A stretch of 32,000 nucleotides of DNA from an uncultured Candidatus Saccharibacteria bacterium. GTDB taxonomy: Bacteria; Patescibacteriota; UBA1384; XYA2-FULL-43-10; 1-14-0-10-43-13. Below, piece by piece: positions 3,260 through 31,843 of the stretch. The number at the start of each line of letters is the position of its first letter. Within the stretch, counting starts at the first letter, position 1. The notes beneath the pieces are model-generated. The model had not been told where the DNA came from, did no database searches, and saw only the letters and a list, made by a program, of their open reading frames with translations. The position numbers and the translations under genes were made by a program. Location: NCBI GenBank assembly GCA_964543385.1, contig CAZIYE010000001.1, forward strand, positions 390,001 to 422,000, given 5' to 3'.

Positions 3260-4171
3260 ATGGCTTCAACACAAGAATTCAGACGCCGAATCAAATCGGT
3301 CAATAATACAAAACAAATTACCAAAGCAATGGAAATGATCGCCTCTATTAAGATGCAAAAGGCAACTCGTTTTGCTGCAATGGCTAGAAGCTACACCCAA
3401 AACGCTTGGAATATGCTTTTAAAGCTTGCAACAATTGTACTGCCAGAGGCACATCCCCTATTGAATCCAAGAGAAGTAAGGAGAACAGCGGTAGTCTTAT
3501 TGACTTCAGATCGTGGACTTTGTGGTTCATATAATTCGGAAGTACTGAAAAAATTTGTTGCATTCGAAAAGGAACAATGCGCCTGCAATCAAAAAAGTTG
3601 CGGTGAATTTGTAGGAAATTGTGATGTAATTACTATCGGTAAAAAGGGCGCGGAATTCACCAAAAGATATAAAACAGGCAAACTAATCGCTGAATTCCCC
3701 GGCTTCGAAAATAATATTCAGGCAGAAGATGTTATGCCTATCTCCAAAATGACAAGCGATGAATACCTAGCCGGCAAATATGACCGAGTAGTAGTTATTT
3801 ACTCTCATTTTGAATCATCACTAAAACAAATACCGGTCGTCAAACAGATTTTACCTATATCAAACGACCATATTGATAAACCAGAAATATGGACACAAAC
3901 CGATGAGGCTGAGACCGAATACAAATTTGAGCCAAGCCCAGATGACGTTCTAGAAGGAATACTTAAGCAATTTCTGAGAGTTCAAATATACGGCGCAATC
4001 CTAGAGGCCAATGCCTCAGAACATTCTGCCCGTATGGTAGCAATGAAAAATGCTACTGACAGCGCTGGTGATCTGATAGATGAGCTCAAACTGGTATACA
4101 ACGCTGTCCGCCAAGGCTCAATCACTCGTGAAATTGCTGAGATATCTGGCGCAGCGGAAGCAATGAAGTAG
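3260..4171 (+). CDS. atpG: F-type ATP synthase F1 subunit gamma
   Basis: 303 aa. N-terminus IKSVNNTKQITKAMEMIASIKMQKA and C-terminus NASEHSARMVAMKNATDSAGDLIDELKLVYNAVRQGSITREIAEI are typical gamma helices. Confidence 0.93.
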   Translation: MASTQEFRRRIKSVNNTKQITKAMEMIASIKMQKATRFAAMARSYTQNAWNMLLKLATIVLPEAHPLLNPREVRRTAVVLLTSDRGLCGSYNSEVLKKFVAFEKEQCACNQKSCGEFVGNCDVITIGKKGAEFTKRYKTGKLIAEFPGFENNIQAEDVMPISKMTSDEYLAGKYDRVVVIYSHFESSLKQIPVVKQILPISNDHIDKPEIWTQTDEAETEYKFEPSPDDVLEGILKQFLRVQIYGAILEANASEHSARMVAMKNATDSAGDLIDELKLVYNAVRQGSITREIAEISGAAEAMK

Positions 4172-4379
4172 CACATTTAAAAAAACCAGGCCGCCACTTA
4201 CTTGATTTCGGCGGCAGCCTGGAGATGGGAAGGCGGGACCATTCCTCGTCTTCATCGGAGACGAACTCGTGTTCGTCGCTACGGCCGAGGGGCCGTGTCT
4301 GTTGCCCTTGCTTCGGGCAATCGGCGGTATCCATGCAGGAGCACGGACACAGATCATCATCGCGGCCACAGTCGGCCAT
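4122..4379 (-). CDS. Hypothetical small acidic Cys-rich protein (85 aa as drawn; 3' end uncertain)
   Basis: ATG at 4379 lies 7 nt after AAGGGGGA. Product is MADCGRDDDLCPCSCMDTADCP... Hand-counted GC1/GC2/GC3 over the first 57 codons is about 67/51/72%, a coding-like pattern. Caveat: no in-frame stop occurs before the terminator at 4179-4222, and the frame only closes 50 nt inside antisense atpG. Confidence 0.4.
   Translation of the reverse strand: MADCGRDDDLCPCSCMDTADCPKQGQQTRPLGRSDEHEFVSDEDEEWSRLPISRLPPKSSKWRPGFFKCATSLLPLRQISQQFHE
4179..4222 (-). terminator. Intrinsic terminator active on the minus strand only
   Basis: Minus strand reads CCAGGCTGCCGCC-(14 nt loop)-GGCGGCCTGG followed by T7. 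On the plus strand the A7 run precedes the stem, so atp transcripts should read through. Confidence 0.6.
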
Positions 4380-4426
4380 AGTGGTGTCCCCCTTTTCGAA
4401 ACGTTGTCCGGAAACCGGATGGGAGA
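4186..4426. other. GC-rich compositional island 1, in the atpG-atpD spacer
   Basis: Abrupt shift from AT-rich backbone to about 60% GC sequence. All-frame ORFs appear here because stop codons are depleted. Confidence 0.8.
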
Positions 4427-4427
4427 T

Positions 4428-4456
4428 ACAATAAAATAAATTAGTTAATATGTCAA
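4428..4456 (-). promoter_or_regulatory. Sigma70-like promoter for the island-1 ORF
   Basis: Minus strand has TTGACA (4456-4451), a 17-nt spacer and TATTGT (4433-4428). It lies in AT-rich DNA directly next to the atpD SD. AT-rich DNA produces such hexamers by chance. Confidence 0.35.
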
Positions 4457-4467
4457 TAAGGAGATAG

Positions 4468-5832
<1,365 letters not shown>

Positions 5833-5836
5833 GAAT

Positions 5837-5882
5837 CCCATCCAAAGTGTATCGGCCGAAACCGATCGACCCTAAGGATGGG
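5837..5882 (-). terminator. Compound hairpin downstream of the island-2 ORF; possible minus-strand terminator
   Basis: Outer stem is CCCATCC/GGATGGG and inner stem is ATCGG/CCGAT. On the minus strand it is followed by ATTCCTATTTTCC. There is no T-tract on the plus strand. Confidence 0.35.
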
Positions 5883-5908
5883 CGGAATTGTATGGCTGTT
5901 CCCCTTCA

Positions 5909-6118
5909 TTACTTCTTCTTTGGCCCTTTTGGCGGAACCGAAGGAAGATGTATCTTCGAGAAGCATCCAAGCCGTGCCATGATGATGATAACCATCACTA
6001 TTACGGCTACTGCCGGAGTAATTGCGCAGGCAAGTCCCATCTTTAGATAGATCAAGATAGCCTCCGCTATCGCGGCCATGCCAAGCGTAATCAGCAAGTC
6101 TCTGAGAATCGGATCCAT
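5909..6118 (-). CDS. Hypothetical 69-aa two-TM membrane protein with a Lys-rich tail (holin-like or type I toxin-like architecture)
   Basis: ATG at 6118 lies 4 nt after GGGGGGTGA. Product is MDPILRDLLITLGMAAIAEAILIYLKMGLACAITPAVAVIVMVIIIMARLGCFSKIHLPSVPPKGPKKK. It has two hydrophobic helices and a basic C-terminus. Confidence 0.5.
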   Translation of the reverse strand: MDPILRDLLITLGMAAIAEAILIYLKMGLACAITPAVAVIVMVIIIMARLGCFSKIHLPSVPPKGPKKK

Positions 6119-6167
6119 GGTTTCACCCCCCATTCGTTTCCAGTAAAGTAGTGTCAACCTTGCTTGT

Positions 6168-6196
6168 TTTATATCATTAATAAATTAGCATTTCAA
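6168..6196 (-). promoter_or_regulatory. Candidate sigma70-like promoter for the island-2 ORF
   Basis: Minus strand has TTGAAA (6196-6191), a 17-nt spacer and TATAAA (6173-6168), abutting the atpC ATG. A second TTGACA at 6157-6152 has no acceptable -10. Confidence 0.3.
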
Positions 6197-6616
6197 ATGA
6201 AAACAAATTTCAACTTAAAAATCATCGCCCCTGATGGCGTCAAATATGAGGAAGAGGCCACCGAAATTAGCCTTCCGACTCCAGATGGCTATATTACCAT
6301 CCTGCCAAATCATATGCCTCTAATAGCACTATTAAAGCCAGGCGAGATTATCATCAAGAACGGTTCGAAAATCCATGAGCTAGCAACCGAGGGCGGTATT
6401 GTAGAAATCTCGAATAACCTAGTTAAAATCTTGGCTGATACAGCTGAAGAGGTCAATAATCTTAACGAACTAAGAATTATTGAGGCCAAAAAAGCCGCCG
6501 AAGAGAGATTAAAAAATGCCAAGGATGATGTTGAGTTTGCCGATGCAGCCGCTCATTTAGAAAAACAATTAGCAAAGCTAAGTATCCTTAACAAACGCAG
6601 AAAAAAATACCGCTAA
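6197..6616 (+). CDS. atpC: F-type ATP synthase F1 subunit epsilon
   Basis: Starts MKTNFNLKIIAPDG, then TILPNHMPLIALLKPGEI, with a C-terminal helical hairpin. The ORF-track start at 6164 is a TTG extension. Confidence 0.9.
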   Translation: MKTNFNLKIIAPDGVKYEEEATEISLPTPDGYITILPNHMPLIALLKPGEIIIKNGSKIHELATEGGIVEISNNLVKILADTAEEVNNLNELRIIEAKKAAEERLKNAKDDVEFADAAAHLEKQLAKLSILNKRRKKYR

Positions 6617-27405: not shown

Positions 27406-27419
27406 ATAAATGGTATAAA
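27391..27419 (+). promoter_or_regulatory. Candidate sigma70-like promoter for the island-3 ORF
   Basis: TTGATC (27391-27396), a 17-nt spacer and TATAAA (27414-27419), in AT-rich DNA at the 5' end of mnmA. Confidence 0.35.
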
Positions 27420-27434
27420 TATGCTTATCATTTT

Positions 27435-27459
27435 CGATATCCTAACGGATATCGTTTTT
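27435..27459 (+). promoter_or_regulatory. Perfect 8-bp inverted repeat plus T5 in the predicted leader (attenuator hairpin or operator)
   Basis: CGATATCC-TAAC-GGATATCG followed by TTTTT, lying between the candidate -10 and the SD GGAGGA (27475-27480). Confidence 0.5.
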
Positions 27460-27465
27460 GGTAAA

Positions 27466-27693
27466 ACCCCTATTGGAGGATGTTCGATGATTAACCCCTG
27501 CCTGCGCGCCCAATTGCGGCGCGACGTCGCCCGTCGCTGGAAGGCGACCACGGAAGCACTCCGTAACTCTGAATGCCAGAACTGCGTTCTCGCAGACAGC
27601 GGATCGTGCGCTCCGGCCAACTGTCCGGGCCATCAGGCCCAATCGCGGCACTAGCCGCACTGCGTCCCGCCACTCCCCTCAAAGGAGTGGCGG
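27466..27693. other. GC-rich compositional island 3, in the mnmA-folD spacer
   Basis: Hand count of the ORF gives about 65% GC, against about 37% in a folD sample line. Confidence 0.8.
27487..27654 (+). CDS. Hypothetical 55-aa basic Cys-rich protein
   Basis: GGAGGA lies 6 nt before the ATG. Product is MINPCLRAQLRRDVARRWKATTEALRNSECQNCVLADSGSCAPANCPGHQAQSRH. Hand-counted GC3 is about 73%. TAG stop lies 12 nt before a strong terminator. Confidence 0.5.
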   Translation: MINPCLRAQLRRDVARRWKATTEALRNSECQNCVLADSGSCAPANCPGHQAQSRH

Positions 27694-27701
27694 TTCTTTT
27701 T
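27667..27701 (+). terminator. Intrinsic terminator active on the plus strand only
   Basis: CCGCCACTCC-CCTCAAA-GGAGTGGCGG followed by TTCTTTTT. The T-tract overlaps the folD stop codon on the opposite strand. Confidence 0.8.
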
Positions 27702-30574: not shown

Positions 30575-31843
30575 ACCTGAGCGCGAACGCCCGGGTCATC
30601 TCCCACTTCCTTTGTTCAGCTCCACCAGCGGTCCGATGACCACCTTCTGGAGCATGATCCTACGATTCTCGGGGTTCCGCAGCCTCCAGCTGTCTCCTCC
30701 CAGGAATCGGCGCTGCTCAGCAGCAGACAGCCCCTTCCAGCGTGGATCCTTCGCCTGAGCGGCGATCTCAGCATCGCTGTTTGGGACGCCGCACTCGAGT
30801 AGCACCTTGTTCTCGATCGTGTTATAACCACCGAGAACATCGAAGGTCTTTGCTAAAGTGCAGTTGACTGGCTTGCCGAACCGTTTCCGGCCATAGCCCT
30901 GATCAAGCAGAACATTCTCGATCAGTCCGGCCAGTTGTCCAGTGTTACCTCGTCGGTGACACTCACGCAGCCCTGACCAACCATTGCTACCCAACGAGTC
31001 CACATGGAGCTCGACGAATGCACTAGTGGTACAGTTCTGGTGATCAGACTGGGCTTGGGCAGCAGCTTTCGCTCGGTCGACTGTGTCAGAGGAGTTCTGC
31101 ATGGGGTTTCCCCCATATAAGACAGCCTCTTTTGGCAACGGCAGAGGATCTTTTGGCCCAGTCACCTGGTCCATTGATTCAGCCTCGGCCGCATATACCA
31201 CAGTCGCACCGAGAGCTTCAGCCATCAGGCCAAGCTCACGCGCCATCCGATAGGTATAGGCGGCTTCCCAGTAGGCTTCTCCGTCGAATACCCAAGAGCA
31301 TCCGACGTCGAGACCATAACTGGTTACAGCATCACGGCCACCATGACCGGGGCTAACGACCAGCAACTGACCCAATAGGGCGTTCTGGCCATATTGCGCT
31401 ACGATTGCCCTACGCTCTGCTTCGGAGAAGCTGAGTTTGGGGCCTCGGGGCAGAAGTTTGCCAAGGCCTTGCGGCTCCTGGGGCTCCTGCACAGTCGTGC
31501 CGGGCTTTACAGCCGGCTTGTGCTGGTTCCACGGGTGCCACAAGAGCACGCCGAGAACCAACAACAGGAAAAGACTTGCCATGATAACGCCGAAGCGGTT
31601 CTTAGCATAGTTTTCTGCATAGGAACTACCGAACCCTGCAAAGAACGCAATGACTGCCGCCATCAGGGCTTCGAGGACCATCCACAGGCCCTGCAAAAAT
31701 GCGAGGGCTTTGGGGTGGCGGCGCCCGAAGGTCGCCCAACGCTGTTGAATCCGCATGATTTTTCTCCTTTTCAGAGCTGCCACGTGCGGTTGGACAGCTC
31801 AAGTGTTCTTCTCGCCGGATGTGTAGAATTTCCAGCGTAGACT
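30531..31843. other. GC-rich compositional island 4
   Basis: About 1.3 kb of clearly GC-rich sequence with sharp AT-rich borders on both sides. Confidence 0.85.
30596..31756 (-). CDS. Membrane-anchored N-acetylmuramoyl-L-alanine amidase-like protein (Amidase_3/MurNAc-LAA-like)
   Basis: I prefer the ATG at 31756, which follows AAAGGAGA. Two N-terminal hydrophobic helices. Motifs VVSPGHGGRD, GEAYWE, ELHVDS and VLLECGVPNSD follow the Zn-amidase pattern GHGG...E...H...E. TGA stop lies 29 nt before the terminator. Confidence 0.55.
   Translation of the reverse strand: MRIQQRWATFGRRHPKALAFLQGLWMVLEALMAAVIAFFAGFGSSYAENYAKNRFGVIMASLFLLLVLGVLLWHPWNQHKPAVKPGTTVQEPQEPQGLGKLLPRGPKLSFSEAERRAIVAQYGQNALLGQLLVVSPGHGGRDAVTSYGLDVGCSWVFDGEAYWEAAYTYRMARELGLMAEALGATVVYAAEAESMDQVTGPKDPLPLPKEAVLYGGNPMQNSSDTVDRAKAAAQAQSDHQNCTTSAFVELHVDSLGSNGWSGLRECHRRGNTGQLAGLIENVLLDQGYGRKRFGKPVNCTLAKTFDVLGGYNTIENKVLLECGVPNSDAEIAAQAKDPRWKGLSAAEQRRFLGGDSWRLRNPENRRIMLQKVVIGPLVELNKGSGR

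Follow-up and report, generated by a model that had tools for sequence, protein, structure and literature searches.

The toxins of type I toxin–antitoxin systems, which include Hok/Gef, TxpA, Fst/Ldr, TisB and AapA1, and the class II holins, exemplified by S21 of phage 21, proteins of about 70 residues in which two stretches are hydrophobic and the C-terminal tail is very basic, are among the described systems closest to the gene considered here. Free-standing selfish genes, for which the intronless homing of the seg and mob genes of phage T4 provides a comparison, and the excludon-type antisense arrangements known from Listeria are others. The gene, orf69, lies on the minus strand of the spacer between atpD and atpC (island 2; 364 bp, positions 5833–6196, with a GC content of 0.46 against a window mean of 0.39) in a 32,000-nucleotide stretch of DNA, the window (contig CAZIYE010000001.1, positions 390,001 to 422,000). 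The window comes from an ultrasmall bacterium of the Candidate Phyla Radiation (CPR; Patescibacteria), a group with many uncharacterised small genes, and the genome is AT-rich (39% GC). With a probability of about 60%, we read orf69 as the gene of an accessory membrane protein, carried by a self-contained, foreign antisense cassette in an insertion-tolerant atp junction.

The open reading frame (ORF) comprises 69 codons and a stop codon (minus strand, 5909–6118, with the stop at 5911–5909) and translates as MDPILRDLLITLGMAAIAEAILIYLKMGLACAITPAVAVIVMVIIIMARLGCFSKIHLPSVPPKGPKKK. A preliminary description, made from the letters of the window alone, had placed this ORF on the minus strand with an ATG at 6118 and the Shine–Dalgarno sequence GGGGGGTGA ahead of it; all three are present there, and the translation agrees exactly with the one that it quoted. 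The length of the ORF alone is not beyond chance: in simulated spacers, Markov sequences of 364 bp with matching composition, an ATG-initiated ORF of at least 69 codons occurred in 12.5% of cases. It is the conservation of orf69 in a second genome, rather than the features of the locus itself, that lifts it above chance.

A word-indexed search of 5.8 billion proteins with orf69 returned no homologue. An exhaustive phmmer search over 1.84 billion representative proteins returned one true homologue, P0001, which has 69 residues and is 72% identical to orf69 (E = 7.6e-25). A second phmmer match, P0002, a 519-residue tandem-repeat protein aligned over 34 residues, was judged spurious. P0001 is encoded on a 1.1-kb Joint Genome Institute (JGI) metagenome contig, locus L083, where it is flanked on one side by the 3′ half of atpD and on the other by the 5′ end of atpC, in the same antisense orientation as orf69; a peptide-pattern scan of JGI metagenome contigs recovered only this already known locus. 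The preliminary description had allowed for homologues that conserve RNA structure in place of the ORF, and P0001 keeps the ORF.

The two genes differ at 51 of 210 nucleotides, divided 16/9/26 among the three codon positions, and the resulting 19 residue changes are nearly all conservative swaps (I/V, L/F, Y/F, A/G). The ratio of non-synonymous to synonymous substitution (dN/dS) is 0.24, and the six substitutions in the first 13 codons are all synonymous. The flanking atpD genes of the window and L083 share about 81% nucleotide identity, with synonymous sites near saturation (synonymous divergence, pS, 0.65) and a dN/dS of 0.03. No insertion or deletion separates orf69 from the P0001 gene, and their start and stop positions are equal, while the non-coding DNA on both sides carries indels of 3 and 5 nucleotides. 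When 51 random substitutions were simulated, the ORF stayed intact in 7% of trials, and none of 200,000 produced as few as 19 residue changes. On the operon strand of island 2, ORFs keep neither their starts nor their stops in the homologous locus. We conclude from this pairwise comparison that orf69 is a real gene under purifying selection. The core of the preliminary description is supported: between atpD and atpC lies an antisense gene that looks expressed and whose product is a small, basic-tailed membrane protein. Synonymous divergence is lower in orf69 than in its flanks (pS 0.48 versus 0.65, with an estimated z of about 2.2 from one sequence pair), a possible sign of lateral spread or of constrained synonymous sites. 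The GC content at third codon positions (GC3) is 0.56 in orf69, compared with 0.31–0.40 (about 0.35) in host genes.

Putative expression signals surround the ORF. A sigma-70-like promoter on the minus strand, consisting of TTGAAA (6196–6191) and TATAAA (6173–6168) with a 17-nucleotide spacer (6168–6196 overall), abuts the start codon of atpC and would place the start of orf69 transcription near 6161. The block is kept in L083 (TTGAAA-17-TATAAA) and recurs in variant form (TTGAAT-17-TATAAA) in L088, a relative with a different antisense membrane ORF at its atpD–atpC junction. These three loci with an antisense membrane ORF are the only ones in which it is present, and it is missing from four relatives whose atpD–atpC junction lacks an antisense ORF. 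A consensus scanner missed the block because its rule demands T at position 6 of the -10 hexamer. The Shine–Dalgarno site (minus strand, 6123–6131) is followed by AACC and then, after this 4-nucleotide gap, by the ATG at 6118–6116. At the equivalent place the L083 homologue has GGAGGAGGAG, so that the site is retained and its sequence changed. Host genes in the window carry GGAG or GGAGG 5–8 nucleotides upstream of their starts.

At the other end of the gene, the compound hairpin noted in the preliminary description (minus strand, 5837–5882), with its outer stem CCCATCC...GGATGGG and inner stem ATCGG/CCGAT, is present and folds in three tiers, with an energy of -21.5 kcal/mol as minus-strand RNA and -18.3 kcal/mol as plus-strand RNA. 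It is followed on the minus strand by ATTCCTATTTTCC, which overlaps the last codons of atpD. The corresponding minus- and plus-strand energies are -24.1 and -15.8 kcal/mol in L083, and -32.4 and -24.3 kcal/mol in L088. In these three loci and in island 1, the atpG–atpD spacer of the window, the hairpins are 3–8 kcal/mol more stable as minus-strand RNA; G·U pairs account for the difference at the atpD–atpC junction, and this bias suggests that the hairpin functions in the antisense transcript. The window and L083 have the same outer stem, with inner tiers rebuilt from different sequence. As read from the aligned loci, the Shine–Dalgarno site, the promoter block and the strand-biased hairpin are all conserved. 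The folding z of the 91-nucleotide hairpin region is only about -1.1, and a scan found no canonical intrinsic terminator at the island 2 hairpin. Because a proper U-tract does not follow it, the hairpin may stabilise the 3′ end of the transcript rather than terminate transcription efficiently. Island 2 as a whole folds unremarkably as RNA (z = -1.9 for the plus strand and -0.9 for the minus strand). In Rfam searches the window gave only a transfer RNA at gathering score, and the region 4100–6250 gave chance-level matches only (E >= 1.7). The heptamer GGATGGG, common to islands 1 and 2, is not enriched, with 5 copies against 2.5 expected and at least 5 in 9 of 100 shuffles.

The predicted protein has a firm transmembrane segment at residues 29–47, with a value of -1.9 on the summed Hessa scale. 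Residues 8–25, set apart from it by the four residues KMGL, show only marginal hydrophobicity (+0.4 to +2.5) and no amphipathicity, and they include an invariant glutamate, Glu19. The tail, HLPSVPPKGPKKK, is rich in proline and lysine, and by the positive-inside rule it should be cytoplasmic. AlphaFold2, run with the two-sequence alignment, returned, at moderate confidence, one continuous helix spanning residues 3–56, with a predicted local distance difference test (pLDDT) score of 71 and a predicted template modelling (pTM) score of 0.31, a model too uninformative for comparison of folds. Two hydrophobic helices and a basic C-terminus had been described for this product; the helix at 29–47 and the basic tail stand, and the segment at 8–25 is only marginal. 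We consider the two-transmembrane architecture plausible, not established.

Comparison with holin and toxin families had also been proposed. Profile searches of Pfam, PHROGs, NCBIfam and PADLOC with orf69 and P0001, at E values up to 10, gave noise-level matches only and no holin, toxin or defence family; PHROGs, at the same limit, held no holin match for either protein, and the best weak Pfam match was Phage_holin_10, to P0001 only (E = 2, 8.9 bits). Nor did orf69 match ATP-synt_C, ATP-synt_I or any other Pfam family at E values up to 10; the true atpE of the operon (435–665) does match ATP-synt_C. The best E value in a PDB profile search with orf69 was 0.39, and no match to it was found by tblastn and blastn of phage and plasmid records or by a peptide-pattern scan of viral contigs. 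On this basis orf69 and P0001 would constitute a previously undescribed family with two known members.

Pfam assignments place atpB (partial), atpE, atpF, atpH, atpA, atpG, atpD and atpC in that order on the plus strand. Island 2 is flanked upstream by atpD, encoding the F1 beta subunit (plus strand, 4468–5832; ATP-synt_ab, E = 3e-76), and downstream by atpC, encoding the F1 epsilon subunit (plus strand, 6197–6616; ATP-synt_DE_N, E = 3e-24). The island had been singled out as a 364-bp spacer among junctions of 16–80 bp. The length is correct, but the spacer is not the only long one: the junctions measure, in order, 36, 80, 53, 18 and 16 bp, followed by 296 bp at atpG–atpD and 364 bp at atpD–atpC. 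Two independent Logan assemblies, SRR12261226 and SRR12261225, contain the sequence of island 2 at 100% identity, so it is not an assembly artefact. No second copy exists in the window or in 91 fetched loci, and the island is not a repeat or a miniature inverted-repeat transposable element. The AtpD of the window is at most 75–76% identical to that of any species representative in the genome collection, where its best matches are all metagenome-assembled genomes of Patescibacteria, and the AtpC relatives that bear names, at about 70% identity, belong to 'Candidatus Berkelbacteria'.

The sequence leading into atpC (6165–6199, …TTAGCATTTCAA ATG) contains no Shine–Dalgarno sequence. The same is true of atpA, atpG, atpH, recG and folD in the window, other genes of which have strong GGAGG sites. 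A scan of 5833–6196 detected no promoter-like or terminator-like site on the plus strand. Because neither was detected in the spacer and atpC has no Shine–Dalgarno sequence, atpC is most likely expressed by read-through across island 2, and the operon RNA would therefore be fully complementary to the orf69 messenger RNA (mRNA).

To place orf69 among its relatives, we compared contigs whose AtpD C-terminus is 91–97% and whose AtpC is 75–80% identical to that of the window. The atpD–atpC junction measures 3 nucleotides in L085, 18 in L087, 84 in L091, 97 in L086, 108 on the contig encoding P0004 and 109 in L090. In L089 it holds a plus-strand 23S_rRNA_IVP gene of 125 codons (1298–1675), in the window and L083 it holds orf69, and in L088 (1500–1978) it holds an antisense ORF of 61 codons (MRNFGFSLLWGG...) unrelated to orf69. 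The L088 product has a firm transmembrane segment and a marginal N-terminal segment with an aspartate; its gene has an AAGGAG Shine–Dalgarno site and a compound hairpin beside the atpD stop codon. A word-indexed search of 5.8 billion proteins with the 61-residue protein returned only itself, and it has no detectable sequence similarity to orf69 (BLASTP E = 7.4). The two nevertheless have a layout in common, in which the first segment contains an acidic residue, the turn a lysine, and the firm transmembrane segment begins with a proline. About 200 nucleotides downstream of the L088 ORF, in another frame, there is a Lys/Pro-rich stretch (…SLPKKPLPPKVG…) that resembles the tail of orf69. As atpD of the same contig is also split in two, a frameshift error may be hiding a longer L088 protein that spans the membrane in its N-terminal part and ends in a basic tail.

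Other junctions of the operon are occupied too. L086 has a GIY-YIG gene of 95 codons between atpG and atpD (1909–2196), and at the atpA–atpG junction there are antisense ORFs of 98 and 94 codons in L085 (820–1602), the latter encoding a membrane protein, an antisense ORF of 73 codons in L091 (1123–1344) and a plus-strand ORF of 101 codons in L086. More distant Patescibacteria often have insertions of 200–1000 bp at atpG–atpD and atpD–atpC that hold unrelated small genes. The atp junctions are thus variable among relatives, and the antisense junction ORFs, from five genomes, are all GC3-rich (0.56–0.61, against 0.31–0.46 in the host atpD). L087 has no island yet is as close to the window as L083 is, with third-position identities of 0.53 and 0.54, respectively. 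Vertical inheritance of orf69 within a small clade is the simplest reading of these sequences, because by the AtpC N-terminus the window and L083 are mutual nearest relatives. The spacers of L086 (3905–4000) and L091 (3917–4000), AT-rich and 84–97 nucleotides long, are made of repeated and inverted GTTCATAAAG / CTTTATAAAC motifs and constitute another type of junction element, which may be an array of binding sites or a small repeat. We located no report in the literature of antisense genes within atp operons or of atp-junction insertions in CPR bacteria.

In the explanation that we favour, a compact cassette oriented against the atp operon comprises its own promoter, a strong Shine–Dalgarno site, the gene of 69 codons and a hairpin at the 3′ end. 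The hairpin would end the antisense transcript at the atpD stop codon, giving an mRNA from about 6161 to 5836, and the product would be a small integral membrane protein in which the helix at 29–47 follows a weakly hydrophobic segment with a conserved glutamate. The cassette is compositionally foreign (GC3 0.56 against about 0.35), and its host junction would be one of several in a Berkelbacteria-like CPR clade that have repeatedly acquired unrelated small genes. We take the position of orf69 to reflect an insertion-tolerant landing site rather than a role in the ATP synthase, because the junction occupants are unrelated, include selfish-type genes (GIY-YIG and 23S_rRNA_IVP) and are patchily distributed among close relatives. 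Since transcription would be convergent and the orf69 mRNA fully complementary to the operon read-through RNA, orf69 may be expressed in inverse relation to atp transcription, with colliding polymerases and the formation of RNA duplexes as the means, and the protein would act in the membrane as a small accessory, possibly growth-inhibiting, peptide. We infer from the features of the locus that orf69 is transcribed, how its product sits in the membrane, how it is coupled to atp and what physiological effect it may have, be it toxin-like harm, modulation of the ATPase or none, as neutral cargo.

Several points weigh against this explanation. There is a single homologue, and every selection statistic rests on one pairwise comparison. 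The gene caller applied to the Logan contigs did not call orf69. The promoter and the 3′ end were recognised solely from consensus motifs and predicted folding, with a hairpin that has no proper U-tract, and the promoter-like block could instead belong to atpC, read on the plus strand. The second membrane span is marginal, and no hairpin of helices came out of the AlphaFold2 prediction. Finally, synteny in two genomes fits a functional link to the ATP synthase equally well.

A bolder extension, which we think improbable, is that orf69 represents a mobile class: antisense, GC3-rich cassettes for small, often membrane, proteins that would specifically colonise the atp junctions of this clade with the read-through mRNA as their antisense partner, and would behave either as addiction modules resembling type I toxins or as switches by which a fall in atp transcription frees the expression of epsilon from that of beta. 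If this were true, the lower synonymous divergence of orf69 than of atpD (0.48 versus 0.65) would reflect lateral spread, with recombination through the conserved flanks.

Of the competing explanations, a type I toxin-like module fares best, and we consider it possible, if rather unlikely. Here orf69 would be a membrane-damaging peptide and the atp read-through RNA, abundant and perfectly complementary, its antitoxin, with the duplex degraded or translation blocked, so that the peptide would be made only when atp transcription falls. The product of this intergenic island is, as would be expected, a small hydrophobic peptide, with a firm transmembrane segment and a basic tail in its 69 residues, and like many type I toxins it is a fast-evolving orphan; at that length, however, it is longer than is typical and exceeds most of them. 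The operon transcript would overlap orf69 over its full length, atpC having no detected promoter of its own, but no promoter for a dedicated small antisense RNA was found. The minimum-free-energy folds of the window and L083 mRNAs do not contain the conserved fold that sequesters the Shine–Dalgarno site: the two putative mRNAs have no conserved pairing of 5′ and 3′ ends, they differ in the occlusion of the site, and the window transcript has a z of -0.85. A comparable antisense membrane ORF does occur at the atpD–atpC junction of L088. Against this, orf69 matches no toxin family of Pfam or NCBIfam and is single-copy in the window and the fetched loci. A toxin-like role for orf69 is, on this analysis, possible.

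It is less probable still that orf69 is a lineage-specific accessory or regulator of the F-type ATPase, one that binds or assembles Fo or tunes the epsilon-to-beta ratio through cleavage of the atpD–atpC mRNA duplex, and that has been retained beside the genes it serves. The gene is kept at the same atp junction in two genomes, and small antisense membrane ORFs recur in the atp junctions of relatives. However, orf69 is absent from the equally close relatives L087, L085, L086, L089, L090 and L091, and the junction occupants in relatives are unrelated to one another and include the selfish-type GIY-YIG and 23S_rRNA_IVP genes. Within the protein, the membrane-embedded carboxylate of Glu19 is conserved and the 13 N-terminal residues are invariant despite near-saturated synonymous change, both of which speak for such a role, but no match to ATP-synt_C, ATP-synt_I or any other Pfam family accompanies them. 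Lying on the opposite strand, orf69 is not co-transcribed with atp, and its foreign GC3 argues for acquisition.

That there is no gene at all, and that the ORF has arisen by chance in a non-coding spacer or a structured RNA element, seems to us very improbable. Its frequency in random spacers of the same composition, the failure of the gene caller to report it in the Logan contigs and the empty word-indexed search speak for a chance ORF; residue conservation far above neutral expectation, the preservation of start, stop and length with indels confined to the DNA outside, and the retention of a Shine–Dalgarno site in both genomes speak against one. A structured RNA element sits no better with an unexceptional RNA fold and no match in Rfam.

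Least credible of all is the holin or lysis cassette that the preliminary description had raised, as weak speculation, from its likeness to class II holins and from a link to an amidase-like gene (30596–31783): the size, hydrophobic segments and highly basic C-terminus of orf69 do recall the holin layout, and both genes are GC-rich relative to the genome, their sole shared trait, but orf69 matches no holin family and no phage, viral-contig or plasmid sequence; its potential dual start (an upstream in-frame ATG at 6133, giving MGGET-M) is not conserved, P0001 having no upstream in-frame start; its neighbours are atpD and atpC, with no endolysin or spanin adjacent; P0001 occupies the same chromosomal atp context and not a prophage; and the amidase-like protein, which scores below the Pfam cut-off (25.2 versus 27 bits) and matches no PHROG, is separated from orf69 by 24 kb of housekeeping genes. 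The lysis module was rejected on these grounds. The remainder of the window consists of housekeeping and envelope genes, among them glmS, a histidine kinase gene, miaA, ABC transporter genes, recG, mnmA, folD, nifU and nifS.

Other features of the window deserve mention. Island 1 (4172–4467), at the atpG–atpD junction, is a second GC-rich island, with a GC content of up to 0.60 and the same antisense layout as island 2. Its minus strand has a promoter-like TTGACA-17-TATTGT (4456–4428), a Shine–Dalgarno sequence, GGGGGA, and an ATG at 4379 that opens an ORF of 85 codons. The product is rich in cysteine and acidic residues, and no family match to it was found. A canonical intrinsic terminator on the minus strand, CCAGGCTGCCGCC...GGCGGCCTGG followed by seven T residues, lies at about 4180–4223, and the island 1 hairpin has an energy of -23.2 kcal/mol on the minus strand compared with -17.5 kcal/mol on the plus strand. 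Because the ORF, which runs to 4122, reads through this terminator, it may not be real. A third GC-rich island (27406–27699; GC 0.56), between folD and mnmA, is without a convincing ORF. It opens with a perfect 12-bp hairpin immediately after the folD stop codon and, as minus-strand RNA, folds at -125 kcal/mol (z = -4.5), which none of 200 shuffles equalled. With no Rfam match at gathering score, the island may be an undescribed structured RNA. The amidase-like ORF itself (minus strand) encodes 395 residues, with a GC content of 0.57 and a GC3 of 0.62 in a genome of 39% GC; its Amidase_3 score is the sub-cut-off one given above, it has no PHROG or PADLOC match, and by composition it looks horizontally acquired.

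Small proteins are systematically overlooked in genome annotation, and orf69 or its homologue went uncalled in two of the three assemblies carrying either. The locus illustrates cleanly how a conserved orphan gene for a membrane protein can lie antisense within an essential operon, and it draws attention to the unusual plasticity of the atp operon junctions in one CPR clade. Should the antisense arrangement prove to have a regulatory or toxin-like role, the locus would offer an uncomplicated natural example of a housekeeping mRNA that serves as antisense partner to a gene embedded within its operon; otherwise, orf69 would be another lineage-specific accessory gene. Overall, we regard orf69 and P0001 as a new family of orphan small proteins whose position is unusual yet can be explained.

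How the locus compares with described systems may now be stated. Like type I toxins, orf69 is predicted to be small, hydrophobic and located in the membrane, with charge at one end; its gene is intergenic and would be overlapped by a complementary transcript, and it is lineage-restricted and fast-evolving. It differs from them in its greater length (69 residues), its extra marginal hydrophobic segment and its want of a family match; moreover, the complementary RNA would be the read-through transcript of a housekeeping operon, not a dedicated small RNA, and no conserved fold occludes the Shine–Dalgarno site. With class II holins such as S21 it shares a size of about 70 residues, two hydrophobic stretches, one of them marginal in orf69, and a very basic tail, but it has no sequence relationship to them, no conserved dual start, no endolysin or spanin as a neighbour and no phage context, and it is conserved instead in a chromosomal operon junction. 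AtpI/UncI and AtpZ are, like orf69, small hydrophobic proteins encoded within the atp operon; they are encoded on the operon strand at the 5′ end and belong to defined Pfam families, whereas orf69 is antisense, lies between atpD and atpC, matches no Pfam family and is missing from equally close relatives. In excludons a long antisense 5′ untranslated region runs across a neighbouring divergent operon, whereas orf69 would be a monocistronic cassette of 0.3 kb inside an operon; the two would have in common that transcription is convergent or overlapping, so that each unit should be expressed at the expense of the other. Unlike free-standing selfish genes of the GIY-YIG and 23S_rRNA_IVP kinds, orf69 has no nuclease or other mobility domain; neither terminal repeats nor a target duplication was identified, and just one copy is seen. 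It nevertheless resembles these genes in its place between highly conserved genes, in its patchy presence and in the interchangeability of the occupants of its site, and its own composition is foreign.

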